Source: an uncultured Chitinophaga sp. (GTDB lineage Bacteria > Bacteroidota > Bacteroidia > Chitinophagales > Chitinophagaceae). Taken from it: a DNA stretch of 64,000 bases. The translations under genes and the position numbers were made by a program. The DNA lies in assembly GCF_902168175.1 (NCBI RefSeq), contig NZ_CABHOU010000103.1, forward strand, positions 545-64,544, in the 5' to 3' direction. The notes beneath the pieces were generated by a model. That model searched no databases, was not told where the DNA came from, and saw nothing but the letters and a program-made list of their open reading frames with translations. Shown here piece by piece: positions 3,276 to 17,793 of the stretch; position 1 is the stretch's first letter, and every line of letters starts with the position of its first letter.

Positions 3276-3872
3276 ATGGAAAAGAAGGCAGACTTTACCG
3301 GTACATTTTCTATTGATGCAATGCGGAGTGGAGATATGGCTGCGTTTAACAGCCTGTTCTCGCAATTCTATGCACCCCTTTGTTACTTCGCGGAAAAGAT
3401 ACTGGAAGATAAGTTTGCCGCCGAAGAAGTAGTGCAGGGGGTTATGATGACGGTATGGAACAAACGGGCGGACTTCGACGCCTTTCCTGCCCTTAAATCC
3501 TTTCTCTATATAAGTACCCGCAACGCCAGCCTTAACCACCTCGATAAGCTGCAACGGCAGCGCCAGCAGCAAAAGTTAATAGAGCAAAGCAGCCCGGTTT
3601 CTGAAGAAGTGATCCTCAGTTCCATATTCAGGGCGGAAGCCATGCGCGAAATATACCAGGCTATCGACAAACTGCCAGAGAAGTATCGGGTAATTATGGA
3701 ACTGGCCTATAAAGAAGAATTGAAAATCAACGAGATAGCAGAGAAGCTGGATATGCCGGTGAATACGGTGCATAAACAGAAGAACAGAGCCCTGTCGTCC
3801 TTAAAGAAACTTCTTTCTCATAAATCATTTCTCTTACTGCTGGCGGCTTTGAGCAACGATCAGCTATCCTGA
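3276..3872 (+). CDS. ECF RNA polymerase sigma-70 factor (Bacteroidetes PUL type)
   Basis: Region 2 (LFSQFYAPLCYFA...AEEVVQ...LKSFLYISTRNASLNHL) and region 4 HTH (EIAEKLDMPVNTVHKQKNRALSSLKK); sits directly upstream of a fecR homologue. Confidence 0.93.
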   Translation: MEKKADFTGTFSIDAMRSGDMAAFNSLFSQFYAPLCYFAEKILEDKFAAEEVVQGVMMTVWNKRADFDAFPALKSFLYISTRNASLNHLDKLQRQRQQQKLIEQSSPVSEEVILSSIFRAEAMREIYQAIDKLPEKYRVIMELAYKEELKINEIAEKLDMPVNTVHKQKNRALSSLKKLLSHKSFLLLLAALSNDQLS

Positions 3873-3948: not shown

Positions 3949-5121
3949 ATGAATGATCAAGAATTGCAAACAGCGTTAAAGATGGCGGGGCTCATGCCCG
4001 GTTATCTTACTAATACCCTTACCCCGTTAGAAAGGGAAGCGTTGGAGGCATGGATGGCAGCCAGCGACACTAACCGCAAAGCGGTGGAAAGCCTGCTGAA
4101 CGAAGATCAGGCGTTAGCGGAGTGGCGGATGATGGAGAAGTACAGGCTGAAGAAACCGGCAACGGTAAAAGCTATATCGCCCGTACCCGTGCGTAACAGG
4201 CAAATATGGTGGGCCCAGGCGGCAGCGGTTGCGCTGGTAGTTATTGGCAGCACCACGGCGATATGGGTAAATAACACGAAACCGGCTACCACACCCGTGG
4301 CGGCAATAGCGGAAGTGTTGCCTGGCAGTACCAAAGCAAAACTGGTACTGCCGAACGGTGAAACGCTTTCGCTGGACGAATCCAGCGATACGGCCTTCAT
4401 GCAGGGGCAGGCAGTGCAGGTGCAGCAACACCAGGGGAACCTGGCTTACGAACAGTTGACGGGAGAAACGGATGAAGTAATCTATCACAAACTCATCACC
4501 CCCAAAGGCGGCGAGTTTAAAGTGAGACTGGAAGATGGTACGCTGGTTTGGCTGAACGCCGCTTCATCTATCCGTTACCCGACAAAGTTTACCGGCAGTA
4601 CACGTACGGTGCAGGTAACAGGGGAGGCCTACTTCGAAATAGCAAAGGATGCGGAACATCCTTTTATCGTGGAAGTAAACGATTTTACTGCTATAGAAGT
4701 GCTGGGTACCCACTTTAATGTAAATGCTTATACAGACCAGGAACATATATATACAACACTACTGCAAGGCGCAGTAGCCGTTACTGCCGGCGCAGAAAGG
4801 CGACGATTGTCGCCAGGCCAGCAGGCCATTGTAAACCACCAGCCTAACAGTCCTGTAAATGTACAGGCGGCCGACACTATCCGGGCCGTGGCGTGGAAAA
4901 ATGGAGAGTTCGATTTTAACGATGCGAAATTGTCGGATGTCATGCGGCAATTATCAAAGTGGTACGATGTTACCATTACTTATGAACCAGGCGCCCCCGA
5001 TATTAAGATATGGGGAAGAATGAAAAGAAACCAAAATCTGCAACAAGTAGTTGCCATCCTGAACGCAATGGATGTAAAAGTTAGACTGGAAGAAGGACGG
5101 AAACTATCCGTGTTACGTTAG
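3949..5121 (+). CDS. FecR-family anti-sigma factor
   Basis: Single TM segment, FecR core (TPKGGEFKVRLEDGTLVWLNAASSIRYP, GEAYFEIAKD, VLGTHFNVNAY) and a C-terminal DUF4974-like region (AWKNGEFDF). Confidence 0.95.
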   Translation: MNDQELQTALKMAGLMPGYLTNTLTPLEREALEAWMAASDTNRKAVESLLNEDQALAEWRMMEKYRLKKPATVKAISPVPVRNRQIWWAQAAAVALVVIGSTTAIWVNNTKPATTPVAAIAEVLPGSTKAKLVLPNGETLSLDESSDTAFMQGQAVQVQQHQGNLAYEQLTGETDEVIYHKLITPKGGEFKVRLEDGTLVWLNAASSIRYPTKFTGSTRTVQVTGEAYFEIAKDAEHPFIVEVNDFTAIEVLGTHFNVNAYTDQEHIYTTLLQGAVAVTAGAERRRLSPGQQAIVNHQPNSPVNVQAADTIRAVAWKNGEFDFNDAKLSDVMRQLSKWYDVTITYEPGAPDIKIWGRMKRNQNLQQVVAILNAMDVKVRLEEGRKLSVLR

Positions 5122-5219
5122 TACGCATTTGAAGCTTTAGAGAACATATTGCAGCCCGAAAGAGGGTTGTAAGGCTTGTATTGACCATTATTTACCAACC
5201 AAGATCAAACATTTGTACT

Positions 5220-8200
5220 ATGCGATTAATTGCCTTCATGCTGTTTGCATGTGCACTAAGTTGTAGCGCCATGGCACACGCCCAGCGTATTACATTTTCC
5301 GGTACAAAGGTGCCCTTACAAGAGGTACTCACGGAAGTGCAGAAACAAACCGGCTACCTTGTTATGAGCAACAGCCAGCTCATTAAAGAAGCTCCTCCTG
5401 TGACCATCACGGCGTCGCAGCAGCCACTTGTAACGTTCCTCGACGAACTGTTTAAGGGGCCGAAACTCGAATATGCTATTGAGAACAAAACGATTACTAT
5501 CCGCAGAAAGAAAGTCAATGTGCTTCCCTTTTTACCAGACACTGCACGCCTTCCGCAGAAAGACATTATTGGTACGGTAACCGACGAAGCAGGACAACCT
5601 ATTCCGGGTGTTACAGTTCGTGTTCAGGGCCGTACTGGCGGTACTTCCACCGATGCGCAGGGGAAGTTCCGCATCAAGGCAGATACTACAGCCATACTGC
5701 ATATTTCGAGTATCGGCTATTTGCCGCGCGATTTGACCACGCCGGCCGTATTACGTTCATCACTGATCCGACTTGCTCCTGCAGCCAATAACCTGGAGGC
5801 AGTATCGATCGTAACTACTGGTTATCAAACCAGGAAACAGAGCCAGCAGGTAGGCTCTATTACTTCTGTAAAGGGAAAAGACCTGGAGAACTCCGGTATT
5901 ACTACGTTCGATAAAGCCCTGGCAGGAAGAATGCCAGGCGTATACGTACGCAGCGTATCGGGCCGGCCGGGCGAAACAGGGCAGATCATCATCCGTGGCG
6001 TTAACACGCTTACGGGTAACGTGGAACCGCTGTACGTACTGGACGGTATGCCGCTACAGCCTGGTGAAGTGAGCGGTAGCATGAATACGCTCATCACCAA
6101 CGGTATCGGTAACATCCCCCCTGAAAATATAGAAAGCATCACCATCCTGAAAGATGCGACGGCAGCGTCCATTTATGGTTCCCGAGCAGCTAACGGGGTA
6201 ATTGTAATTACCACTAAAAGCGGTAAGGTGGGTAACGACTATGTAAACTATACTGGCAAATATGGTATCACCGAACGTCCGCAGAACAACTTCAGCTTCA
6301 TGAACTCGAAAGAGAAAGTGGCGTTTGAAAGGGGCCTCAGGGATGACTTTTATCCCCCGTATGAATCGGGTGGCCGTGTTATCCAGCTGCTTAGTCTGGC
6401 CGACAAAGGTGCCATTTCACAAGCTGATGCAGAAGCGCGGATCGCAGAACTGGAACAAACGAATACCGACTGGATCAAACAATTGTACCGCGTGGCACAG
6501 AGCCAGTCGCACAACATCAGCCTGAGTGGTGGTAATACAAAAACCACTTACTATGCCGGTTTCAACTACCAGGAGTCACAGGGTAGCCTGATCGAGAACA
6601 AGTTCCAGACTGGCGGGTTGAATATGAAGCTCTCCCGTTATGCAACGGACAAGCTGCTGTTTAAGGTAAACCTGTACACCACACTGAAAAAGAACCAGGA
6701 GGGTCAGGCAGGCCTCGACCCCTTTAAATATGCGGTGTTCGCCAATCCGTATGAGAAGCCTTATAATGCAGACGGTTCCTACGCATCAGATATGACCTAC
6801 CGCGCTATTCCTTATGATATCGGGAACAACAGTACCCTGTATTACTCTACGTTCAATATGATCCGCGAGTTGAAGGAAAACCGGCTTACTAACATGTATG
6901 GCAACATACGTGGACAGTTTGCAGTGGAATACGATTTCCTGAAACACTTTAAATACACGGGTAACGTTGCAGCGTCTTACACTTCGGTGCATGATAAGGA
7001 CGAATCGTTTGGAGGCACGTACCGCTCATGGGCCAACAACTGGCTAACCGCAGCGTCTACGGGTGGAGGCGTACTGCCTGAGCATAACCGTGGTTACCTG
7101 CAGGAAAATACAGGTCGCACCTTCGATTATACGGTGCGTAATACGCTCGAGTACAACAATACGATTGCAGGGAAACATTTCGTGCAGGCGTTTTTTGCGA
7201 ATGAATTCGGCGCCATTAAAAACGACCAGTTCATGCACTTCAATCCTATCTACCTGCAGGAGTATGCCATCGCCGGCTATCCCAGCTGGGACCTGGTGGC
7301 GGATACGCGCTTCATGAGTCTGAATTTAAGCAGGTTCGGTAATACCAAAACATCAGAGAACAGGAGCGCCTCCTTTATCGGCTCGCTCGTGTACTCGTAT
7401 GACAACCGCTACGTGTTTAACGGTAATATTCGTTACGATGGCGTAGATATTATCGGCTCCGAAAATCAGTTCTCTCCGTTATGGTCTGCCGGTGTTCGGT
7501 GGAACGCGCAGAACGAGAAGTTCCTGATCGACTATCAGGACGTGATCAGCAGGCTGGTACTGTCGGCCGGTTACGGTTACCGCGGTAGTATTAACCGCAG
7601 TGTATTGCCTTTCCATACTTACGACCTCGGGACCGCCGTATACGCCAGCACACCTGTTGCTGCAATGTTCTATTATGGTAACCCGGTAATTAAGTGGGAG
7701 AAAAAAGGTGAAACGAACTTAGGATTGGAGCTATCGCTGTTTAAAGGTCGTGTGAATACAGAGTGGCGTTACTTTAACGAGAAAGTAACCGACCTGCTCG
7801 ATGATACCAAGATACCACCATCAACTGGCCGTTCGAGCACGAAAGTGAACGTAGGTTCTTTAAGCAACAAAGGACTGGAAGTGAGCCTGCGTATAGAAGC
7901 GATCAAAACAAAAGACTGGTTATGGGAAGTGAGCGGTAACATCACGAAGGTGAAGAATAACCTGACGAATGTATTCGAAAAGGAATATCCAACGCTGGCC
8001 AACAGTTATACTACCAACATAGAAGGATACCCGGTAAACAGCTGGTTCGGTTACAAATACGTTCGTGTAAACCCGGAGAATGGCAGCCTGATCGTACTGG
8101 CGCAGAAACGTAACGCTAAAGTGGTGGATGGTAAAGTTGAAACCTCCCTGGTAGATACCGAAGTAGACTTAAGCCGCACCGCCGTGGCCGATCTGCAGGC

Positions 8201-8723
8201 TAACTACCGCCCTTACTACCTCGGTCACCGTGACCCTGAGGTGTATGGTGGTTTTAATTCCCGTTTAACTTATAAGGCGATAGAGCTGACCGCCAACTTC
8301 GTATTTGCAGATGGCAACCAGATCGTTGGTTTCCGCGACAGGAGAGAAGGTCCTAGTGGCGCTAACAGCGACATCTTTACCAGCCGAACCAATCGCCTGA
8401 AGAAAAACCTGAACCGCTGGCGCCAGGTAGGTGATATTACCGATATCCCGGTATATCGCACCTCGTCTTCCAGTTATACCAACTACCTTATTTCTACCGA
8501 TATAGAAAGCGGCCGTTACCTGAAGTGTACAGAGCTGGCGCTGTCATGGCGCGCACCACGCAATCTGCTGGCACGTTCGAGCATGAAATCGCTGAAAGCG
8601 ACCATCGTAGCTTCCAACCTGTTAGCGTTAAGTCCGTACAGCGGTACCGATGCGGAAACGCAAACACCTTTCGGCTATCCTAACACACGCAGCTACACAG
8701 CATCCTTAACCGTTGGCTTCTAA
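5220..8723 (+). CDS. SusC/RagA-family TonB-dependent transporter with N-terminal STN signalling domain
   Basis: Signal peptide, STN-like N-terminus, CarboxypepD_reg-like domain, plug motif IESITILKDATAASIYGSRAANGVIVITTK, C-terminal Phe. The ATG at 5220 is preferred over the TTG at 5181 because of its A-rich initiation region. Confidence 0.95.
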   Translation: MRLIAFMLFACALSCSAMAHAQRITFSGTKVPLQEVLTEVQKQTGYLVMSNSQLIKEAPPVTITASQQPLVTFLDELFKGPKLEYAIENKTITIRRKKVNVLPFLPDTARLPQKDIIGTVTDEAGQPIPGVTVRVQGRTGGTSTDAQGKFRIKADTTAILHISSIGYLPRDLTTPAVLRSSLIRLAPAANNLEAVSIVTTGYQTRKQSQQVGSITSVKGKDLENSGITTFDKALAGRMPGVYVRSVSGRPGETGQIIIRGVNTLTGNVEPLYVLDGMPLQPGEVSGSMNTLITNGIGNIPPENIESITILKDATAASIYGSRAANGVIVITTKSGKVGNDYVNYTGKYGITERPQNNFSFMNSKEKVAFERGLRDDFYPPYESGGRVIQLLSLADKGAISQADAEARIAELEQTNTDWIKQLYRVAQSQSHNISLSGGNTKTTYYAGFNYQESQGSLIENKFQTGGLNMKLSRYATDKLLFKVNLYTTLKKNQEGQAGLDPFKYAVFANPYEKPYNADGSYASDMTYRAIPYDIGNNSTLYYSTFNMIRELKENRLTNMYGNIRGQFAVEYDFLKHFKYTGNVAASYTSVHDKDESFGGTYRSWANNWLTAASTGGGVLPEHNRGYLQENTGRTFDYTVRNTLEYNNTIAGKHFVQAFFANEFGAIKNDQFMHFNPIYLQEYAIAGYPSWDLVADTRFMSLNLSRFGNTKTSENRSASFIGSLVYSYDNRYVFNGNIRYDGVDIIGSENQFSPLWSAGVRWNAQNEKFLIDYQDVISRLVLSAGYGYRGSINRSVLPFHTYDLGTAVYASTPVAAMFYYGNPVIKWEKKGETNLGLELSLFKGRVNTEWRYFNEKVTDLLDDTKIPPSTGRSSTKVNVGSLSNKGLEVSLRIEAIKTKDWLWEVSGNITKVKNNLTNVFEKEYPTLANSYTTNIEGYPVNSWFGYKYVRVNPENGSLIVLAQKRNAKVVDGKVETSLVDTEVDLSRTAVADLQANYRPYYLGHRDPEVYGGFNSRLTYKAIELTANFVFADGNQIVGFRDRREGPSGANSDIFTSRTNRLKKNLNRWRQVGDITDIPVYRTSSSSYTNYLISTDIESGRYLKCTELALSWRAPRNLLARSSMKSLKATIVASNLLALSPYSGTDAETQTPFGYPNTRSYTASLTVGF

Positions 8724-8734
8724 ATTTATCAACC

Positions 8735-10285
8735 ATGAGAAAAAGTATTGCCTATATATTACTCTCTTCCCTGCTGATGATTTCGCAGGGTTGTAAAGAC
8801 TTCCTCGACCTGCCACCAAAAAACAAACGTACGGTGACGACGATCACCGATGTAAAATCGCTGCTGGGCTCTTACCTGCGCGGCGTGGCAGAGTTACGTG
8901 TAAAGCCGCTTTACGGCAGTGTATTGTGCATAGCGCCGCCCGCAGGCAACGTGCTGTTCGAATCTTATTCCGATAATATAGATTTTGAAACGGCCCTTAC
9001 GCAAACTTACCTGCAGCCGAATAACTACCATCTTAAATCGGAGTTAAGCTACGCTGATCTGCTGTTGTGGAATAACTTCACTACGCCGCAAACATTGTGG
9101 ACGCAGCACTACGAGATCATCGGCTTCCTGAACAGCCTCATCGACCAGTTAGAAGAGATCGAGGACGGTACAGAGCAGCAGCGCGATCAGATGCGGGGTG
9201 AAATGTTAGCGCACCGTGCGTATTACGTGTTCAAACTGTTGCAATACTTCGCTCCATATAACAAAGCAGAACAGGGCATTCCTGTATACCTGCATACCGG
9301 TCAAAGTACCATGGGTATTAAGATGTCGCGCAAAACGCATGCAGAGGTATATAAGATTATCCTGGACGATCTGAACGCGGCGCTGGAGTTAAATGCTAAA
9401 TCTGCTCCCCTGCAGGGCTTTAACGTGTTTTACAACAGTCGTTACCTGAATCACCTCCTGGCACAGGTATATTGGTTCAAAGCAGAATCACCTGCCAAAG
9501 AAGCCGATGACTATGCAAAGGTGAAAACCCACGCTGCAGCAGCGGCAGAAGGAACAGCAGCTGCTATTCCGACTACCACTACAACGATGATCAATGCTTA
9601 TGCTGGTAAAGATCCCAACTACCCGGCTATATGCGGAGAGAACAACTCCCAGGGCGCGGTAAGTGCCATTTATGGCTCCTGCTATCAGTACTTGTCGCCC
9701 GGCGCTTACGGCCCGGAGAACATTCCGCTTGCGGCCGATTTCGCTGCATTGTTTACGCCTGGTGATATACGTATCGCTGCTATCTTCAATAATGATGTTA
9801 CCCGTGCAGGTGGTAAAGTAGGTGTAGCAGGCAAAACGCTGAACTGGGGCTGGCCTTCCGATGGTACTGCCACGGGTTCACTGAAGCGTGGTAATGCAGC
9901 TATCTTTAAACCTGAAGAGGCTTATCTGTTACTGGCCGAAGCACAGTTCAGACTGAACGAAACCGGTGATGCGATCACTACGCTGAACGCCTTCAAAGCC
10001 TTGCGTAATGCGGGTACGGCTAATGGCCTTACTGGCGATGCATTGTTACAGGAAATCATCAACGAACGCCGTAAAGAGTTTTTTGGTGATAATGATAAAC
10101 GCTGGCTCGATCTGAAACGCTACCGCAATAAGACTATCACACGTAAGCTGATATTCTTCAACAAAACGTACGACCTCACTGTGGCTCCGGACGCGTATAA
10201 CTACGCCTTGCCCATTCCTTTAACGGAAGTGCAGGAAAACCCGGCCCTGGTGCCAAACGACGGATGGATAGCTATTGAATATTAA
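8735..10285 (+). CDS. SusD/RagB-family lipoprotein
   Basis: Lipobox Cys (SQGC), GEMLAHRAYYVFKLLQYF, EEAYLLLAEA, ERRKEFFG...RWLDLKR, LPIP..E...NP; immediately downstream of susC. Confidence 0.92.
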   Translation: MRKSIAYILLSSLLMISQGCKDFLDLPPKNKRTVTTITDVKSLLGSYLRGVAELRVKPLYGSVLCIAPPAGNVLFESYSDNIDFETALTQTYLQPNNYHLKSELSYADLLLWNNFTTPQTLWTQHYEIIGFLNSLIDQLEEIEDGTEQQRDQMRGEMLAHRAYYVFKLLQYFAPYNKAEQGIPVYLHTGQSTMGIKMSRKTHAEVYKIILDDLNAALELNAKSAPLQGFNVFYNSRYLNHLLAQVYWFKAESPAKEADDYAKVKTHAAAAAEGTAAAIPTTTTTMINAYAGKDPNYPAICGENNSQGAVSAIYGSCYQYLSPGAYGPENIPLAADFAALFTPGDIRIAAIFNNDVTRAGGKVGVAGKTLNWGWPSDGTATGSLKRGNAAIFKPEEAYLLLAEAQFRLNETGDAITTLNAFKALRNAGTANGLTGDALLQEIINERRKEFFGDNDKRWLDLKRYRNKTITRKLIFFNKTYDLTVAPDAYNYALPIPLTEVQENPALVPNDGWIAIEY

Positions 10286-10301: not shown

Positions 10302-11576
10302 ATGAAAAACATCATCATAACATGTACCATGCTGGCGGCGGTTTTACTGGGCGCCTGCAAAAAAGATGGATTCAATTATAAAATGGTGAAAGCCACCCTG
10401 GAAGATGTAGACTCTGTGTACTTTTCCGCTACCGATAAAATGCTGGTAGCCGACGGGCAGGCGCGCCTCGACTTCATCGTGGAAGCTTACCGCAAGGTCA
10501 CGCTTTCTAACGGAAAAGATACGATGGCGTTCATCGATTACCGTGAACTGCCGGCTGGTTCTCTAAAATTGATAGAGGAAAGATCAGGTACCGAAGTAGG
10601 ACTTTCTTATTCTACCACCACGATCCCTTTTGATACCGTGAAGTTCCACGCGGAAATCGGAACTGTAAAGTCGGCCACCAAACCGGTAGCGCTCAGGCCA
10701 GTGCCCACACTCCCTGCGAAGGTGTATGTAGATGTGATCTTCCACGTGTGGGAACTTAATCCCACGCATGCATCTTACGATCCTATATCTTACCAGGCAG
10801 TACCTTACGATAAATTACAGGAAGCCATTACTTACATGAACAATGTGGTAAATAACAAAGTGGGGCACAGTCCGAACGGCGCTTCGGCCAACGTGGAGTT
10901 CCGCCTGGCTAAAAAGAACGCGGCTGGTCTTGCGCTGGCGCAGCCTGGTTTTAACAAGATCATTTACAGCGATAACATTAAAACCAACCCGCTGGCTACC
11001 AGCTTTGCGATGGCCGACTTTACGACCATCATCAACGCTACACCGGCGAGCTACATCTGGAACCCTAAAGAATTCCTGAACGTACACGTAATTCCGTGGG
11101 GCACCAACTATGCAATGGGTACCGCTTTTCCCGCAAAACAATTGCCTCCTGGTCAGGGCGAGGAGTCGATACTCGGCGTGGCCGGTGTGGCGGCTAACGA
11201 TAACGACTTTGCCCTTACATACGCCGCTGCATGCGTTGGTTTTCCACGCACAGTGTTCTTCCCCGGCTTTGAGCGTAAACTGGAAGCGTTCCGTTACATA
11301 GGTTCGTTTTACGGCCTGTACACGCCCACTTACACGGCTACCCGGCTGTACTCGGATTTTTGCTATGATACGCGCAAATTCGATGGGCTGGATACCAGAA
11401 ACAGCTACTCATTCGCCACCAAGGTGGGCATCGACAATGAAAAATACATCACAGATAATGCTATGGACGATATCCGTTATCCCACACTGCTGACCTCTAT
11501 CACTGTAGACCAGGTGAAGAGAATGCGGGCGGTGATGGCGCGTTGTCCTGGTAGAATGAACGGTAAAATCCAATAA
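10302..11576 (+). CDS. Lipoprotein with M43 (pappalysin-like) metallopeptidase fold lacking the zinc-binding motif
   Basis: Lipobox LGAC. M43-like landmarks DVIFHV, NVEFRLA, WNPKEFLNVHV, SDFCYDT, NAMDD (Met-turn position) and TVDQVKRMRAVM. The HExxHxxGxxH position reads RYIGSFYGLYT (11292-11324). Confidence 0.75.
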   Translation: MKNIIITCTMLAAVLLGACKKDGFNYKMVKATLEDVDSVYFSATDKMLVADGQARLDFIVEAYRKVTLSNGKDTMAFIDYRELPAGSLKLIEERSGTEVGLSYSTTTIPFDTVKFHAEIGTVKSATKPVALRPVPTLPAKVYVDVIFHVWELNPTHASYDPISYQAVPYDKLQEAITYMNNVVNNKVGHSPNGASANVEFRLAKKNAAGLALAQPGFNKIIYSDNIKTNPLATSFAMADFTTIINATPASYIWNPKEFLNVHVIPWGTNYAMGTAFPAKQLPPGQGEESILGVAGVAANDNDFALTYAAACVGFPRTVFFPGFERKLEAFRYIGSFYGLYTPTYTATRLYSDFCYDTRKFDGLDTRNSYSFATKVGIDNEKYITDNAMDDIRYPTLLTSITVDQVKRMRAVMARCPGRMNGKIQ

Positions 11577-11587
11577 AACCACTGATA

Positions 11588-12730
11588 ATGAAAAAACTAT
11601 TATTGCTTGCCATAGCCGGTTTACCCGTACTGATGGTACAAGCGCAGGAAAAAAGCTTTACGCTGCAGGGTAAGATCGACGATATCGGCGAGCCGGGAAA
11701 AGTAATACTGGCGTACAGCGCCGGTGGCAAGAGAATTTCTGATACTGCAACGCTGACAGCAGGTGCGTTCAGTTTTGCCGGAAAGATAGACCAGCCAAAC
11801 AGAGCCATGATAACCTTGTTAAAGTCCAGTGCCAATCCGAGAATGGGTTTAGGCATGGGGTATGGCGGTGAGATTATCGGTCGCGATGGTGTGCAGTTCT
11901 TCCTGGACGAAGGGGCGATTACCTTCCAGGGTAAAACCATCAAGGAAGCTGCCATCAAAGGTTCTGCTGCTCAGAAAGACTACGAAGCGCTAACCCTGGC
12001 GCAAAAGCCCGTGGTAGATAAACTGACCGCGATCAATGCGGAGATGGGAAAACTGGCGAAAGACAGGGAGTCGGAGGAGTACAAAGCCCTCTACAATAAA
12101 CTGCTGGCTACAATGAAAGAGAACGCGCCGGTGCAGGCAGAATTTATCCGCACGCACCCCGACAGTTGGGTAGCCTTCAGTGAACTCACCAGCAAAAGCA
12201 TTATCAGCAATCCTGCGCAAACACAGGAGCAGTTTAAGGGCATGTCGGCCAGGTTGAGGAATAGCGAAGAAGGTAAGAAGTTCGAAGCCCGTATTAAAAG
12301 CGCTTTTGCCACGGCAATTGGTGCTGTAGCGCCTGCGTTTAGCCAGGACAATACCGAGGGTGCTGCCGTTTCGCTGGCTTCCCTGCGTGGTAAATATGTA
12401 CTGATCGACTTTTGGGCCAGCTGGTGCGGACCATGCCGTGCAGAAAACCCTAATGTTAAAATTGCTTACGACAAGTACAAAAGTAAGAACTTCGAAATTC
12501 TTGCCGTATCATTGGACAAAGAGAAAGCGCCATGGATAAAAGCGATTGCCGACGATGGTTTGCCATGGCTGCATGTAAGTGATTTAAAGGGATGGGATAA
12601 CGTGGTGGCGAAACTGTACAACGTTCGCGCTGTGCCTCAGAACTGGCTGATCGATCCTAACGGTGTAATTATCGCCACCAATATGCGCGGTAAAGAACTG
12701 GAAGACAGGTTGGAAAAGGCATTAAAATAA
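11588..12730 (+). CDS. TlpA/AhpC-TSA family thiol-disulfide oxidoreductase with DUF4369-like N-terminus
   Basis: Signal peptide; LIDFWASWCGPCRAENP active site; AVPQNWLIDPNG cis-Pro loop. Confidence 0.92.
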   Translation: MKKLLLLAIAGLPVLMVQAQEKSFTLQGKIDDIGEPGKVILAYSAGGKRISDTATLTAGAFSFAGKIDQPNRAMITLLKSSANPRMGLGMGYGGEIIGRDGVQFFLDEGAITFQGKTIKEAAIKGSAAQKDYEALTLAQKPVVDKLTAINAEMGKLAKDRESEEYKALYNKLLATMKENAPVQAEFIRTHPDSWVAFSELTSKSIISNPAQTQEQFKGMSARLRNSEEGKKFEARIKSAFATAIGAVAPAFSQDNTEGAAVSLASLRGKYVLIDFWASWCGPCRAENPNVKIAYDKYKSKNFEILAVSLDKEKAPWIKAIADDGLPWLHVSDLKGWDNVVAKLYNVRAVPQNWLIDPNGVIIATNMRGKELEDRLEKALK

Positions 12731-12736
12731 CGCATC

Positions 12737-13873
12737 ATGATAAAGAAACAACCATTAGTGCTGGGGCTCCTGTTATTAGCAGGTAGCGTATCAGCACAAA
12801 AAACACTGGTAATAACCGGTAAGTTTACCGGCGATACCAAAGGCTTTAACCAGGTGTACGTATATGGTACCGGCGTTAAAAGCGATTCTGCTTTGATGAC
12901 GGACGGTAAATTCACGTTCACCCTGCCATTCGATAAGCCTTTTATGCCGCTGTTTTACACGGAGTACGATAAAAGCGTGAAGCGAATGTACGCCCCCTTT
13001 GCCGTACTGGCCGACCAACCGGGTACCATTACGCTCAGCGATGGCGACATCAGCAAAGGTATGAGCAGCTTTACGGTGTCGGGGCTCGAAAGCGCCACGC
13101 TTTTTTCGGAGTACCGTAAAAAGCAGAACGAAATGTATGTAACCGTTAACCAGGCAATAGGAGAGAAGTACGGCAAAAACTGGTACGACGCGAAAAACAA
13201 TACGCAGCATAAAGAGGCGAACGAAGCGCAACAGGCTGCCATACAAGCCGGCAACCTGAAGTTGGTGGAAGCATTCATCAATGCACATCCCGACTCTTAC
13301 GCCACGGGTTACATCCTCAGTGGTGCCCGCACTGCCATCGATGTAGCTGATCTCGAAAGGTTGTACAACAAGCTGTCTGCAAAAACAAAAGCTTCCGCCG
13401 AAGCTAAAAATGTAGGCGACTACCTCACCGGACTGAAAAAATCGGCTATTGGTGCTACGGTGGCGAACTTTACGTTGAATACGCCGCAGGACAAACCTTT
13501 TGCTTTTTCCGAACTGAAAGGCAAATATGTAATGATCGACTTCTGGGCCAGCTGGTGCGGTCCCTGCAAACAGTCGTTCCCGCATATGAAAGAAGTGTAT
13601 GCGAAGTACAAAAGCGACAAATTCGAGATCTACAGCATCTCCATCGACAAGGATAAAGCTGCCTGGCTCAAAGGGCTGGAAGATCAGCAACTTCCCTGGC
13701 TACAGTCGCTGGATACCAAAGGTATTTCGAGCAGCGGGTTCGCCGTAACCGGAGTACCCACTACTTTCCTGATTGATCCTAAAGGGAAAATACTGATGAA
13801 AGAAGTAGGATTCGAACCCGGTGGCAACAGTCCGCTGGAAAAGAAACTCGAAGAGCTGTTTGGCGCAAAATAA
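12737..13873 (+). CDS. Second TlpA-family thiol-disulfide oxidoreductase
   Basis: Signal peptide; MIDFWASWCGPCKQSFP; GVPTTFLIDPKG. Confidence 0.92.
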   Translation: MIKKQPLVLGLLLLAGSVSAQKTLVITGKFTGDTKGFNQVYVYGTGVKSDSALMTDGKFTFTLPFDKPFMPLFYTEYDKSVKRMYAPFAVLADQPGTITLSDGDISKGMSSFTVSGLESATLFSEYRKKQNEMYVTVNQAIGEKYGKNWYDAKNNTQHKEANEAQQAAIQAGNLKLVEAFINAHPDSYATGYILSGARTAIDVADLERLYNKLSAKTKASAEAKNVGDYLTGLKKSAIGATVANFTLNTPQDKPFAFSELKGKYVMIDFWASWCGPCKQSFPHMKEVYAKYKSDKFEIYSISIDKDKAAWLKGLEDQQLPWLQSLDTKGISSSGFAVTGVPTTFLIDPKGKILMKEVGFEPGGNSPLEKKLEELFGAK

Positions 13874-14045: not shown

Positions 14046-14933
14046 ATGGCAAAGGAAAAGATACCGGTTTACGACATTTGCAGCTTAGGCAAGGCGCACG
14101 AAGGAAACGACGACTTCCTGGCCGACCGGTTTTCCGATTACCTGGGCAAGTATTACGACCATCTGCATTTTCCGCATAAACACGCTTTCTTTCACCTGGT
14201 GTTGTTTACGAAAGGCACAGGCACTCATACCATTGATTTTTCCACTTTTGATGTAAAGCCCAGGCAGGTCTACTTTATGGTGCCAGGGCAGGTGCATAGC
14301 TGGCATTTTACAGGGAATACGGACGGTTACATCATCAACTTCTCCGCCTCCTTCTTTAAATCCTTCCTGCAAAATGAAAGTTACCTGGACAGGTTCTCGT
14401 TTTTCAGCGGTATCAGCGAAGAAGGGGTCAGCCAGTTAGCGCCCGATGTGTTTGCAAAAGCGGGTGAGCTGCTGGAGCAGATACTGGGTTATGTAAGCGA
14501 TATGCGCAAACATGCCGATATGATCAAAGTGTTGCTGTTGCAGTTGTTTATGGTGATAGAAGATGTACAGGCGGTGAAGCAGCAGGGCGCTGTGCCGCAG
14601 CAGAAGCTCGTACTGTTAAAAGGTTTCAGGCGACTGATAGATGCGCATTACCGTACCATGCGTTTGCCGGGTGAGTTTGCAGACCTGTTGTACGTTACCC
14701 CCAATCACCTGAACGCACTTTGCCAGGACCTGGTAGGCAAAACCGCCGGAGAACTGATCCGCGACAGGGTTTTGCTGGAAGCCAAACGCCTGCTGGCGAA
14801 TGCAAAGATGACGATCACCGAAGTGGCGTATGACCTCAACTTCCAGGACAACTCTTACTTTAACCGCTTCTTCAAAAAATACACGGGTCAAACACCCGAC
14901 GAATTCAGGAAAAGTATTACTGAACTTAAATAG
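14046..14933 (+). CDS. AraC-family transcriptional regulator with cupin sensing domain
   Basis: PHKHAFFHLV...H.IDF cupin region; C-terminal double HTH (TITEVAYDLNFQDNSYFNRFFKKYTGQTP). Confidence 0.93.
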   Translation: MAKEKIPVYDICSLGKAHEGNDDFLADRFSDYLGKYYDHLHFPHKHAFFHLVLFTKGTGTHTIDFSTFDVKPRQVYFMVPGQVHSWHFTGNTDGYIINFSASFFKSFLQNESYLDRFSFFSGISEEGVSQLAPDVFAKAGELLEQILGYVSDMRKHADMIKVLLLQLFMVIEDVQAVKQQGAVPQQKLVLLKGFRRLIDAHYRTMRLPGEFADLLYVTPNHLNALCQDLVGKTAGELIRDRVLLEAKRLLANAKMTITEVAYDLNFQDNSYFNRFFKKYTGQTPDEFRKSITELK

Positions 14934-14940
14934 TTATAAG

Positions 14941-15414
14941 ATGGAACAAGATATGATGGTGGCTGACAAAGCCTCCAAACGGCCTTCCTTTGTCAAAGTA
15001 TTTGCGTGTAAATGTCCCCGTTGCAGGCGCGGCGATATGTTCGCCGACAAAAATCCATATCATCTTAAACGTACCATGAAGATGAACGTTCACTGCCCGG
15101 TATGTAACCAGCCCTTCGACCTTGAAGTAGGTTTCTACTACGGATCTGGCTACGTGAGTTACGCCTTGTCTGTTGCCATTAGTGTGGCCTCGCTGGTAGC
15201 CTGGTTTTTAACGATCGGCATGGGCCTGTACGATAACCGTTTCATTTACTGGCTGGTCGCCAACGGCGTATTACTGGTGGCACTGCAACCCATACTTATG
15301 CGGCTGGCCCGCTCCATATGGATTGCATTTTTTGTTGGGTACGATGATAACTGGCAGCAACATGCTCCTAAAGAACCTGAGCGTGTAAATAAAGACTTTA
15401 CCAACGCCTGGTAA
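14941..15414 (+). CDS. DUF983-like membrane protein with two CxxC motifs
   Basis: CPRC and CPVC, EVGFYYGSGYVSY and two TM helices. The ATG at 14941 follows the araC stop; the track's longer 14830 start overlaps araC. Confidence 0.8.
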   Translation: MEQDMMVADKASKRPSFVKVFACKCPRCRRGDMFADKNPYHLKRTMKMNVHCPVCNQPFDLEVGFYYGSGYVSYALSVAISVASLVAWFLTIGMGLYDNRFIYWLVANGVLLVALQPILMRLARSIWIAFFVGYDDNWQQHAPKEPERVNKDFTNAW

Positions 15415-17793
15415 TTATTCCGACCGTAAACTTCTAACCGGGTTGGCCAGCGCCGCTTTTATCGTTTGTGTACTCACTGTAAGCAGCGTAACAAGTATCG
15501 CGGCCGATCCGGCCATAGCAAATATCCACCACGAAACGGCGATGCGGTACGTATAACGTTCGAGCCACTGGTGAAGGAAGTAATAGGCGACAGGGCTGGC
15601 AATAATGCAGGAGATTACTACCAGTACCAGGAACTCTTTCGATAACAATCCCCAGAGGTTCATTACTGAAGCGCCCAGCACTTTGCGTATACCTATTTCC
15701 TTGGTGCGCTGTTCCGCCATAAAAGAGGCGAGTCCCAGCAAACCCAGGCAGCTGATAAGGATAGCCAGCAGGGTAATCAGGAACGCCAGTTGCCCTATTC
15801 GTTCCTCGTCTGCAAATTTCTTCCCGTATTCTTCGCTGGCGAACGTATAGTCGAATGGCGCTTTGGGGTTATATTGTTTGAACATGTCGCCGATCTTCGC
15901 TAATGCCACGCTGGTGCTGTTAGCGGGATTCAGCCTGATGTTCACGAAGTTGCCCGGCTCTTTTAATATGTAGTAAATGCTTGGGTAGACAGGTTCATAG
16001 GGAGATTTCATCACCATGTCTTTTATCACACCCGTCACTATAAACGGTTCGCCTTTCCATCTGATGGTTTCGCCTATTGGGTTTTTAAGTCCCATATACT
16101 TAACTGCCGCCTCGTTAAGGATTACGCCGCTGGAGTCGCTCGCAAATTTGGGAGAAAAGTCGCGTCCCTGTACTATCTGCCAGCCGACGGCCGCTCCGTA
16201 ACCATGTGTAGCGCCTACCAGGGCAACAGAAGACGGCGTTGCGGGGTCTTTTCCTTTCCATTCAAAGTCGCTGCTACCCGACCATACATCCGTGATAGGG
16301 CCCTGCGACTGCGAAACAGCCAACGCTACCCCCGATCGTTTTAACTCGTCGGCGATAGTAAGGTAGTGGTCATATATATCTGGTGTGGTCATTTGGATGG
16401 ATATCAATCCTTCCCGGTTATAACCTACCGGCCTGTTTTTAGCAAATTGTATCTGCCTGTAAACCGTGATCGTGCCTGTGATGAGCAATACAGATACTAT
16501 GAATTGTACCACCACTAGTAATTTACGGGGTACCGATGCATAACGCCCCACACGGAATGTACCTTTCAGTACCTTTACAGGTTGAAACGACGACAGGTAA
16601 GCCGCCGGGTAACTCCCGGCAATAATGCCGGCAAACAAACTAAAACCGGCGCAGATCGCCCAGAACAATGGACTGCTCCACAATATCGAGATATGTTTAC
16701 CCGCAATATCGTTAAACAAGGGCAGCGCCAGTTGTGCAAGCAACAGGGCGACCACTAAAGCCAGCATCGACACCAGTATCGATTCGGCGAAGAACTGGCT
16801 GACCAGCTGGCTACGTAAAGAGCCAACTGCTTTTCTGATGCCAACTTCCTTTGCGCGCTTTTCTGACCGTGCGGTACTCAGGTTCATGAAGTTGATTACC
16901 GCAAGCAGTAGTACGAAAAGGCCGATAGTGCCAAACAGTTTAACGAATTGTATCAATCCGCCGGTGCTCACGCCGTTTTTGAATTCCGAAAATAAACGCC
17001 AACGGCTCATGGGATGTGCAAATACTTCAACCTTATACTTTGCTGCTTCCGGAAGCATATCGGCAACCAGCGGCTTTATCTTTTTGTTTAACTGTTCGAA
17101 ACTAGTATGCGGGGCGATTTGTACGTATACGGAAAACGCAAAAAAATCCCACGATTCCGCAATATCCTTCACCCATTGCCATCGGGTCAGCATCAGTTTC
17201 CAGGGTGTAATGTAGTTCAGTTCATGAAAGCCGCTGTTTTCGGGCAGGTTCTTATATACGCCGGTTACCTTCACATCTATACGGTTATCGATGGTAACAA
17301 CTTTGCCTACCGGATCGGCCTGGCCAAATAACACGTTGGCCGTTTTCTCGGAAAGCAGGATAGAATACGGATCTTTTAGTCCTGCCCGCGATCCGCTGAT
17401 CATTTCCAGTGTTAGCATGTCCGGCGCATCCTCACCCATGAAGTTCCCTAATTCCGAAAGTTTGTTATCACCATAAGAAATATTGTGTACGCCGGGAGAC
17501 GACATCACCACGTACTCAAGGTCACTGCCGTATGCTTCTTTCAACGCTGTGCCCATCGGTACGGGCATGCCGGAAGAAGCCTCGGTTTTACCTTCGTCTG
17601 TGGCCCGCGTCCATATTTGCGCAATACGGTCGTAGTTCGCATGATATTTATTAAAGGAATACTCGTCCCATATCCATAGCCCTATCAGTATGGCTACGGC
17701 CATGCCCACAGCAAAACCTGTAATGTTGATGGCTGAATATATCCTGTTTTTACGCAGATTGCGCCAGGCGATCTTGAAGTAGTTCTTTAGCAT
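15415..17793 (-). CDS. MacB/FtsX-type ABC transporter permease (duplicated MacB_PCD + FtsX domains)
   Basis: MLKNYFKIAWRNL N-terminus, INFMNLSTARSEKRAKEVGIRK, EQRTKEIGIRKVLGAS, C-terminal AALANPVRSLRSE. Confidence 0.93.
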   Translation of the reverse strand: MLKNYFKIAWRNLRKNRIYSAINITGFAVGMAVAILIGLWIWDEYSFNKYHANYDRIAQIWTRATDEGKTEASSGMPVPMGTALKEAYGSDLEYVVMSSPGVHNISYGDNKLSELGNFMGEDAPDMLTLEMISGSRAGLKDPYSILLSEKTANVLFGQADPVGKVVTIDNRIDVKVTGVYKNLPENSGFHELNYITPWKLMLTRWQWVKDIAESWDFFAFSVYVQIAPHTSFEQLNKKIKPLVADMLPEAAKYKVEVFAHPMSRWRLFSEFKNGVSTGGLIQFVKLFGTIGLFVLLLAVINFMNLSTARSEKRAKEVGIRKAVGSLRSQLVSQFFAESILVSMLALVVALLLAQLALPLFNDIAGKHISILWSSPLFWAICAGFSLFAGIIAGSYPAAYLSSFQPVKVLKGTFRVGRYASVPRKLLVVVQFIVSVLLITGTITVYRQIQFAKNRPVGYNREGLISIQMTTPDIYDHYLTIADELKRSGVALAVSQSQGPITDVWSGSSDFEWKGKDPATPSSVALVGATHGYGAAVGWQIVQGRDFSPKFASDSSGVILNEAAVKYMGLKNPIGETIRWKGEPFIVTGVIKDMVMKSPYEPVYPSIYYILKEPGNFVNIRLNPANSTSVALAKIGDMFKQYNPKAPFDYTFASEEYGKKFADEERIGQLAFLITLLAILISCLGLLGLASFMAEQRTKEIGIRKVLGASVMNLWGLLSKEFLVLVVISCIIASPVAYYFLHQWLERYTYRIAVSWWIFAMAGSAAILVTLLTVSTQTIKAALANPVRSLRSE

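Follow-up and report, generated by a model that had tools for sequence, protein, structure and literature searches.

A 64,000-nucleotide stretch of DNA from an uncultured Chitinophaga sp. (assembly GCF_902168175.1, contig NZ_CABHOU010000103.1, positions 545 to 64,544 of the forward strand; hereafter the window, numbered from its first letter) carries at 10302-11576 an intact open reading frame (ORF) for a 424-residue lipoprotein, P0001. Profile alignments and a structural model show that this protein has the fold of an M43 metallopeptidase from which all catalytic residues have been lost. Its gene, which we call the dead M43 gene, comes fifth in a series of seven, all on the plus strand. The unit starts with an extracytoplasmic function (ECF)-type sigma-70 factor (3276-3872; Pfam Sigma70_r2, Sigma70_r4_2 and Sigma70_ECF) and a FecR-type anti-sigma factor (3949-5121; Pfam FecR, 2.9e-19, and FecR_C, 1.9e-14), followed by a SusC-like TonB-dependent transporter with an N-terminal STN domain (5181-8723; Pfam STN, CarbopepD_reg_2 and Plug) and a SusD-like lid lipoprotein (8735-10285; Pfam SusD-like_3 and SusD_RagB, lipobox ...SQGC20). 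Downstream of the dead M43 gene lie two genes for exported thiol-disulfide oxidoreductases, each matched by Pfam and NCBIfam models as DUF4369 plus a TlpA/ResA-like domain, with CGPC at residue 280 in the first (11588-12730) and at residue 274 in the second (12737-13873). Both have a type-I signal peptide, and the first is not a lipoprotein. From susC onward the genes are 6-16 nt apart, with gaps of 11 nt between susC and susD, 16 nt between susD and the dead M43 gene, 11 nt before the first oxidoreductase and 6 nt between the two oxidoreductases. The adjacent, co-oriented susC-like and susD-like genes identify a SusCD-type transport locus, similar to a polysaccharide utilisation locus (PUL) but not one in the strict sense, as no carbohydrate-active enzyme is encoded among the seven genes of the unit. 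Scanning for promoters and terminators gave counts no higher than in shuffled sequences, the consensus used not being suited to Bacteroidota.

P0001 begins with a signal peptide and the lipobox LLGAC (10302-10358), which places the lipidation site at Cys19, followed by KKDG. An Ig-like beta-sandwich domain with a conserved ADG motif comes next (residues 28-137, 10383-10712; domain model predicted local distance difference test score (pLDDT) 90.0); it had no match in Pfam, and a fold search returned only generic Ig-like structures, the best with a TM-score of 0.54 (a LigA Big domain). The remainder of the protein (residues 138-424, 10713-11573) is the non-catalytic M43 (pappalysin) domain, recognised by profile-profile alignment with hhalign, by Foldseek and by a profile search of the PDB. 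Three elements within it bear on catalysis and fold: the sequence RYIGSFYGLYT, a degenerate form of the zinc-binding motif HExxHxxGxxH (residues 331-341, 11292-11324), the segment DFCYDT (residues 352-357, 11355-11372), with Asp352, Cys354 and Thr357, whose Asp and Thr match by alignment the pappalysin calcium-site residues named in PMC11674741, and the Met-turn region NAMDD (11457-11471), aligned to NYMDY of mirolysin, in which Met388 is kept and Asp390 occupies the tyrosine-switch position.

An M43 fold without a zinc site

Conventional annotation barely registers this homology. A Pfam scan of P0001 at E<=0.01 assigned no family, and the gathering threshold of the M43 model PF05572 (23 bits) was not reached; an orthologue 75% identical to P0001 scored 13 bits, while Pedobacter and Sphingobacterium orthologues passed with 25-28 bits. 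The sole curated model to match was NCBIfam TIGR03952 (metzin_BF0631; E 6e-15), with 55.1 bits against a cut-off of 208.1 and over profile positions 3-155 of 351 only; the genome-level search gave this model 40.7 bits. Searching the PDB with P0001 as a single sequence returned nothing relevant, so that detection by sequence required a family profile: one built from 37 members retrieved mirolysin (E 1.1e-12) and ulilysin (E 0.008). The AlphaFold2 model of P0001 (mean pLDDT 88.5, predicted TM-score (pTM) 0.83) led to the same enzymes, the top 11 Foldseek matches in the PDB all being ulilysin or mirolysin (probability 1.00, E 1.2e-6 to 1.1e-5) with TM-scores on the target of up to 0.68.

An earlier note on this DNA, made from the letters alone, had proposed a catalytically dead M43 homologue in which all three histidines and the glutamate of the zinc motif are replaced while the glycine and the Gly-Leu pair are kept. 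The motif at 11292-11324, the intact ORF and the landmarks it listed are all present as described, namely VIFHV (residues 145-149), VEFRLA (198-203), WNP..FLNV (253-261), DFCYDT, NAMD (386-389) and T.DQ..RMR (401-409). Since a short motif alone would prove nothing, the correspondence is secured by homology over the full domain. Aligning the family to 21 active relatives with hhalign gave a probability of 100 and an E-value of 1.1e-41 over 250 columns (residues 138-420) and set RYIGSFYGLY(-)T on HE.GH..GL.H; hmmalign of 143 representative sequences, described below, produced an identical register. Both the predicted fold and the profile alignment thus bear the proposal out, and the register confirms each replacement: the first histidine is R331, the general-base glutamate is Y332, the second histidine is S335, and the third falls on a one-residue deletion beside T341. 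Judged from the alignment, none of the replacing side chains is able to form a zinc site. The loss extends beyond the residues that the note had named to the pappalysin tyrosine switch, a catalytic tyrosine two residues past the Met-turn methionine (PMC11674741). This column holds tyrosine in 16 of the 23 active representatives, aspartate in P0001 (D390), and aspartate or glutamate in most sequences without the motif.

The residues that maintain the fold behave differently from those that perform catalysis. Among active representatives the three columns of the first histidine, the glutamate and the second histidine are conserved in 23/23, 22/23 and 22/23 sequences, and the same columns are variable in the group without the motif. 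G334, G338 and L339 are retained in both groups, as are N386, Q404 and R407 and the residues of the C-terminal helix. The Met-turn methionine is present in 107/120 motif-less and 23/23 active representatives, and for each of D352, D356 and T357 the corresponding counts are at least 113/120 and at least 22/23. The result is a clean bacterial pseudo-enzyme, with five catalytic residues gone, the structural ones kept, and, as described next, a single ancient origin and purifying selection.

One ancient loss in a gene under purifying selection

A word search retrieved 98 homologues, from 75% down to 26% identity, all without the motif and all sharing GxFYGLYxT; their sources are Chitinophaga, Pseudobacter, Pedobacter, Sphingobacterium, Carboxylicivirga and a large number of metagenomes. 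When 1.84 billion representatives were searched exhaustively with HMMER, with clusters defined at 50% identity, the set grew to 152 clusters, 143 of which had representatives of at least 280 aa and were retained. The zinc site is absent from 120 of these 143, which share a size of about 400-470 aa, the N-terminal domain and the lipid-bearing cysteine. The other 23 carry HExxHxxGxxH or a close variant (the Gly is replaced in two), and most are long or have no N-terminal domain. We inferred a maximum-likelihood tree of the M43 domain after removing the motif columns, using as active outgroup the relatives reachable from the P0001 query. The 120 motif-less and 23 active sequences separate at a single branch, with one change and an SH-aLRT support of 83, and archaeal and eukaryotic M43 enzymes fall on the active side, which argues for one ancient loss of the zinc site. 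The motif is missing from every orthologue, and the tree shows its loss to be an ancient event of single origin that defines a family.

The former catalytic positions are highly variable. Across the family the first-histidine column holds Y, T, S, N, H or K, the glutamate column Y, L, I, A or V, the second-histidine column R, T, K or S, and the third mostly P. The gene as a whole is nonetheless under strong purifying, not relaxed, selection. Pairwise ratios of non-synonymous to synonymous substitution rates (dN/dS; Nei-Gojobori) for the six pairs of loci with unsaturated dS are 0.045 for L043/L044 (dS 0.43), 0.072 for L042/L043, 0.077 for L042/L044, 0.090 for L004/L005, 0.102 for L008/L012 and 0.110 for L010/L011. 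The constraint covers the N-terminal domain (dN/dS 0.04-0.15) and both M43 subdomains, and none of the five copies in the genus contains a stop codon.

One cysteine pair sets the family apart. Cys354 (11361-11363) and Cys415 (11544-11546) covary, with C/C in 79 sequences, V/S in 14 and hardly any mixed pairs, and Cys415 is conserved in 78% of the dead family compared with 9% of active relatives. This pattern suggests that the two probably form a disulfide peculiar to the family that links the C-terminal tail with the DxCxDT loop, and therefore that the protein is extracytoplasmic. Consistent with export, 95% of the representatives without the motif retain Cys19. In Bacteroidota, the signal for lipoprotein export to the cell surface is K-(D/E)2 or Q-A-(D/E)2 after the lipobox cysteine (PMC5080379). 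The family profile at positions +2 to +5 reads K, K, D/E, E/D and agrees with K-(D/E)2, while P0001 itself, with CKKDG and its single acidic residue, matches only partly.

In a sample of 401 genomes from across the phylum, the only full-length match at E<=1e-20 was the window's own copy, a count that is a lower bound, as four candidates were scored per genome. The genome of the window holds one copy of the family and one other profile match (G000:C108:186166-186930, minus strand, E 7.7e-8). This second match spans profile residues 139-417 and lies inside an open frame of 718 aa, presumably that of an ordinary M43-type protein.

A conserved SusCD neighbourhood with reductases and peptidases

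We compared 29 loci from named genomes of Chitinophagaceae, Sphingobacteriaceae, Tamlana and one Bacteroidales metagenome-assembled genome (MAG). SusD is encoded directly upstream of the dead M43 gene in all 29, with FecR and SusC wherever the contig extends that far; the SusC orthologues are 46-76% identical. As in the window, the ECF sigma gene precedes FecR in related loci, and wherever a contig is long enough SusC bears an STN domain. Metagenomic contigs of remote family members (P0099 at 26% identity, P0159 at 23%, P0114 and P0142) show the same order, with an STN domain in SusC, and on the contig of P0184 SusD is again upstream. The same neighbours recur across four classes of Bacteroidota and from 75% down to 23% identity. 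The P0159 locus also contains an extra 431-aa gene between FecR and SusC (L037:1448-2743), which had no Pfam hit.

On the downstream side, a thioredoxin-fold gene accompanies the dead M43 gene in 27 of 29 genome loci, as well as in those of P0099, P0114, P0184 and P0142. It is of either the DUF4369-TlpA or the Thioredoxin_7/DsbH-like type, so that the coupling survives a swap of thioredoxin type. The Thioredoxin_7/DsbH-like genes, encoding about 370-470 aa, replace or precede the DUF4369-TlpA type in Pedobacter, Tamlana, the Bacteroidales MAG and a remote metagenomic member (L008:9290-10495, L025:9428-10549, L026:10608-11882 and L047:9498-10922); CGPC was confirmed in the two checked, those of L008 and L025. 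Related loci moreover gain peptidases, not glycosidases. In three of them the dead M43 gene is separated from the reductases by the gene of an exported, apparently active peptidase, which is a Peptidase_M1 with an intact HEIMH..E motif in two (L027:9394-11250 and L029:2644-4512) and a trypsin-like enzyme (Trypsin_2) in the third (L025:10649-11566). These insertions hint at a peptide or protein as cargo. Directly 3' of the M1 peptidase in L029, a single ORF (L029:4542-6089) encodes a thioredoxin-like AhpC/TSA domain fused with one of the FGE-sulfatase type, which resembles formylglycine-generating enzyme, another cysteine-directed chemistry within a dead-M43 SusCD unit.

P0239, an active relative with the motif HELGH...H and the only one readable on both flanks, does not adjoin SusCD; other active relatives offered no readable upstream context, P0243 lying where its contig begins, P0204 having a contig to itself and P0146 being on one of 1.7 kb. 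P0239 (L036:8001-9149, CP055154.1) is a 382-aa protein encoded on a 141-kb replicon; Asn substitutes for the Gly of its motif, it has an N-terminal domain that aligns to that of the dead family over 118 residues, and it may resemble the architecture of the active ancestor.

Candidate roles of the dead M43 lipoprotein

The best reading of P0001, and one we consider probable, is that of a non-catalytic accessory or binding subunit of a SusCD importer under sigma/anti-sigma control, presumably exposed at the cell surface. We favour it because a conserved fold that is catalytically dead is combined with a lipid anchor, a place directly after susD, and coupling to reductases and peptidases. Sequence and gene order are our basis for inferring that the protein is exposed at the surface and binds a ligand, what its cargo may be, and how signalling and reduction would follow; among the possible locations of the lipoprotein, display at the surface is the most likely. 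There, a peptide-like ligand would be captured, either in what remains of the substrate cleft or on some other face of the protease scaffold, and passed to the SusD lid and the SusC barrel. Its passage would then be signalled by the STN domain of SusC, via FecR, to the ECF sigma factor, inducing the operon. In the periplasm, the presumably co-transcribed CGPC thioredoxin-fold reductases would open disulfides in the cargo, which in some relatives the exported M1 or trypsin-like peptidases of the unit would subsequently digest. The cargo would thus possibly consist of disulfide-bonded peptides. An assembly of this kind has a precedent in glycan systems, where extra surface lipoproteins encoded beside susCD can join the transporter in 'utilisomes' (PMC7618045). 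The earlier note's idea that a pseudo-peptidase has become a substrate-binding protein of the cell surface is a prediction as well, with the lipobox and a partial export signal as the basis for placing it there.

A more specific and distinctly tentative proposal, to which we give perhaps half the weight of the accessory-subunit reading, makes the dead M43 lipoprotein the receptor, at the cell surface, of a hitherto undescribed system in Bacteroidota for 'reductive peptide utilisation'. Peptides or small proteins with disulfide bonds would be captured uncut, imported by SusCD, reduced in the periplasm by the thioredoxin-fold enzymes, and then digested there, by M1 or trypsin-like peptidases in some clades; the cargo would at the same time induce the system via the STN/FecR/ECF sigma relay.

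Several observations weigh against an accessory binding subunit at the surface. The export signal of P0001 falls short of the family consensus. Few positions in the family vary as much as those where the zinc ligands used to be, and the sole M43-domain column conserved across the 120 motif-less clusters and not in active relatives is Cys415; hence conservation reveals no new binding site, and a purely structural role fits equally well. The reductase coupling has exceptions, as no thioredoxin gene follows the dead M43 gene in L004 and L009, the remaining two of the 29 genome loci, or in the P0159 locus (L037). The shared synteny of orthologous operons partly reflects shared ancestry. Finally, the locus is patchy, being carried by 5 of 81 species of the genus, within which it is an accordingly accessory module.

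The strongest competitor, which we regard as unlikely overall, is a structural, assembly or signalling subunit without ligand binding of its own, which would stabilise or gate SusC/SusD or couple them to FecR and the ECF sigma factor. Such a part would explain the obligate synteny with STN-bearing SusC and SusD, and it accords with family-wide conservation confined to fold-maintaining residues, with no family-specific surface motif visible and with variable ex-catalytic positions. This last feature is ambiguous, however, since diversifying ligand specificity would likewise give variable cleft residues. The architecture of the cleft is moreover kept, including the Met-turn and the glycines of the active-site helix, and the whole 287-residue M43 domain is strongly constrained, beyond what a spacer needs.

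The linkage to thioredoxin-fold genes, tight in genome and metagenomic loci alike despite the change of type, could instead mean that the lipoprotein faces the periplasm and works with the TlpA-like reductases, as an adaptor that holds cargo for reduction or as a redox client. The covarying Cys354/Cys415 pair and the incomplete export signal CKKDG of P0001 would suit this arrangement. We nevertheless think it improbable, as the family consensus after the lipid-bearing cysteine matches the K-(D/E)2 surface signal, the gene has a fixed place beside susD, and L004, L009 and L037 have it without a thioredoxin gene.

The strength of purifying selection, together with database entries in which orthologues are named 'M43 family zinc metalloprotease', might be taken to mean that the protein is still a hydrolase, with an active site of another kind or a metal coordinated in some other way. 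This is very improbable: all five catalytic positions are replaced (by R, Y, S, a deletion beside T, and D), the replacements vary by clade with no set of His, Asp, Glu or Cys recurring, the family has no conserved polar cluster of its own that might serve instead, and the database names stem from a Pfam M43 match, not from experiments. A cryptic alternative catalytic site was rejected on the variability of the replacements. That the gene is what remains of a protease gene in decay, without present function, as its lost motif and patchy distribution might suggest, can be practically dismissed, given the dN/dS of 0.045-0.11, intact frames in all copies, and the conservation of both family and neighbours over 75% to 23% identity and four classes of Bacteroidota; a decaying pseudogene was rejected on the same grounds.

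Relation to known systems

As a probable accessory subunit, the dead M43 lipoprotein joins two known kinds of protein, the pseudo-peptidase and the SusCD accessory lipoprotein. With the pappalysins of M43B (ulilysin, mirolysin and cytophagalysin) it shares the catalytic-domain fold and the motifs that accompany it (the VIFHV strand, ANxEFRLA, WxPxxxLNI, DxCxDT, NxMD, TxDQxxRMR, the active-site-helix Gly and Gly-Leu), but it has none of the three zinc-binding histidines, the general-base glutamate or the switch tyrosine. An Ig-like domain and a lipid anchor take the place of the cysteine-switch prosegment, and the gene lies inside a SusCD operon, unlike that of active P0239. Closer in form is TIGR03952, a family of zinc-dependent metalloproteinase lipoproteins of Bacteroidota that also combine a lipid anchor with an M43-type domain, and of which a true member, P0243 (482 bits), is among the remote relatives of P0001. 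True members, with a length of about 350 aa, have an intact HELGHYLGLFH, whereas P0001 falls short of the cut-off and matches in the N-terminal part only.

On the transporter side, the comparison is with SusE/SusF, the surface glycan-binding proteins (SGBPs) and the utilisome lipoproteins, whose genes also follow susD. The earlier note had placed the gene in a SusE-like position, and this stands for the position itself, directly after susD in every locus where it could be examined, but not for the protein, which has no similarity to SusE/SusF in sequence or fold: no Pfam family of this kind was matched, and no such structure appeared among the fold matches of the full model or of the N-terminal domain. 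SusE/SusF and SGBPs are, like P0001, lipoproteins with an N-terminal Ig-like domain and an expected role as non-catalytic SusCD partners; they differ in being built of tandem Ig/CBM-like domains, where P0001 has a protease-fold body. At the level of the locus, glycan PULs encode glycoside hydrolases, whereas here there are none, and reductases are found instead, joined by peptidases in relatives.

Bacterial pseudo-peptidases that act by binding include the degenerate LytM (M23) factors EnvC and NlpD. These too have lost their zinc ligands and are kept under selection as non-catalytic partners of an envelope machine, but they belong to another peptidase clan, partner amidases, work in a different compartment and have no role in transport.

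A non-glycan precedent for the transporter is RagAB of Porphyromonas gingivalis, a SusC/SusD-type pair that is thought to import peptides, not glycans (PMC11817032). For the dead-M43 locus, by comparison, a peptide cargo is a prediction only. No dead-protease lipoprotein or thioredoxin gene is known to accompany ragAB.

These distinctions matter for annotation. Motif-less orthologues carry public names such as 'M43 family zinc metalloprotease', given to P0056, P0060 and P0093 from Pedobacter and Sphingobacterium, or 'zinc-dependent metalloproteinase lipoprotein'. The 'M43 family zinc metalloprotease' label arises because orthologues of the type of P0056 and P0093, the two that were scanned and gave the 25-28 bits reported above, pass the PF05572 threshold. 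Systematic over-annotation of an inactive family in this way inflates predicted protease repertoires. More broadly, SusCD transporters are understood almost solely for glycans, although Bacteroidota have many SusCD loci free of glycosidases. The dead-M43 loci offer a recognisable signature, consisting of sigma and anti-sigma factors, SusC with STN, SusD, the dead M43 lipoprotein, a thioredoxin-fold reductase and sometimes a peptidase, which points to thiol/disulfide chemistry and a peptide-like cargo. In the searchable literature we found no account of the dead M43 family or of its operon type; PMC10434189, considered as a possible description of the system, was rejected, as it lists only unrelated TlpA and DUF4369 genes.

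Beyond the 3' end of the operon lie three genes for which no link to the dead M43 finding was seen. A MacB/FtsX-type ABC permease is encoded on the minus strand at 15415-17793. Between it and the operon are an AraC-type regulator (14046-14933) and a DUF983-like small membrane protein (14830-15414), the second overlapping the first.

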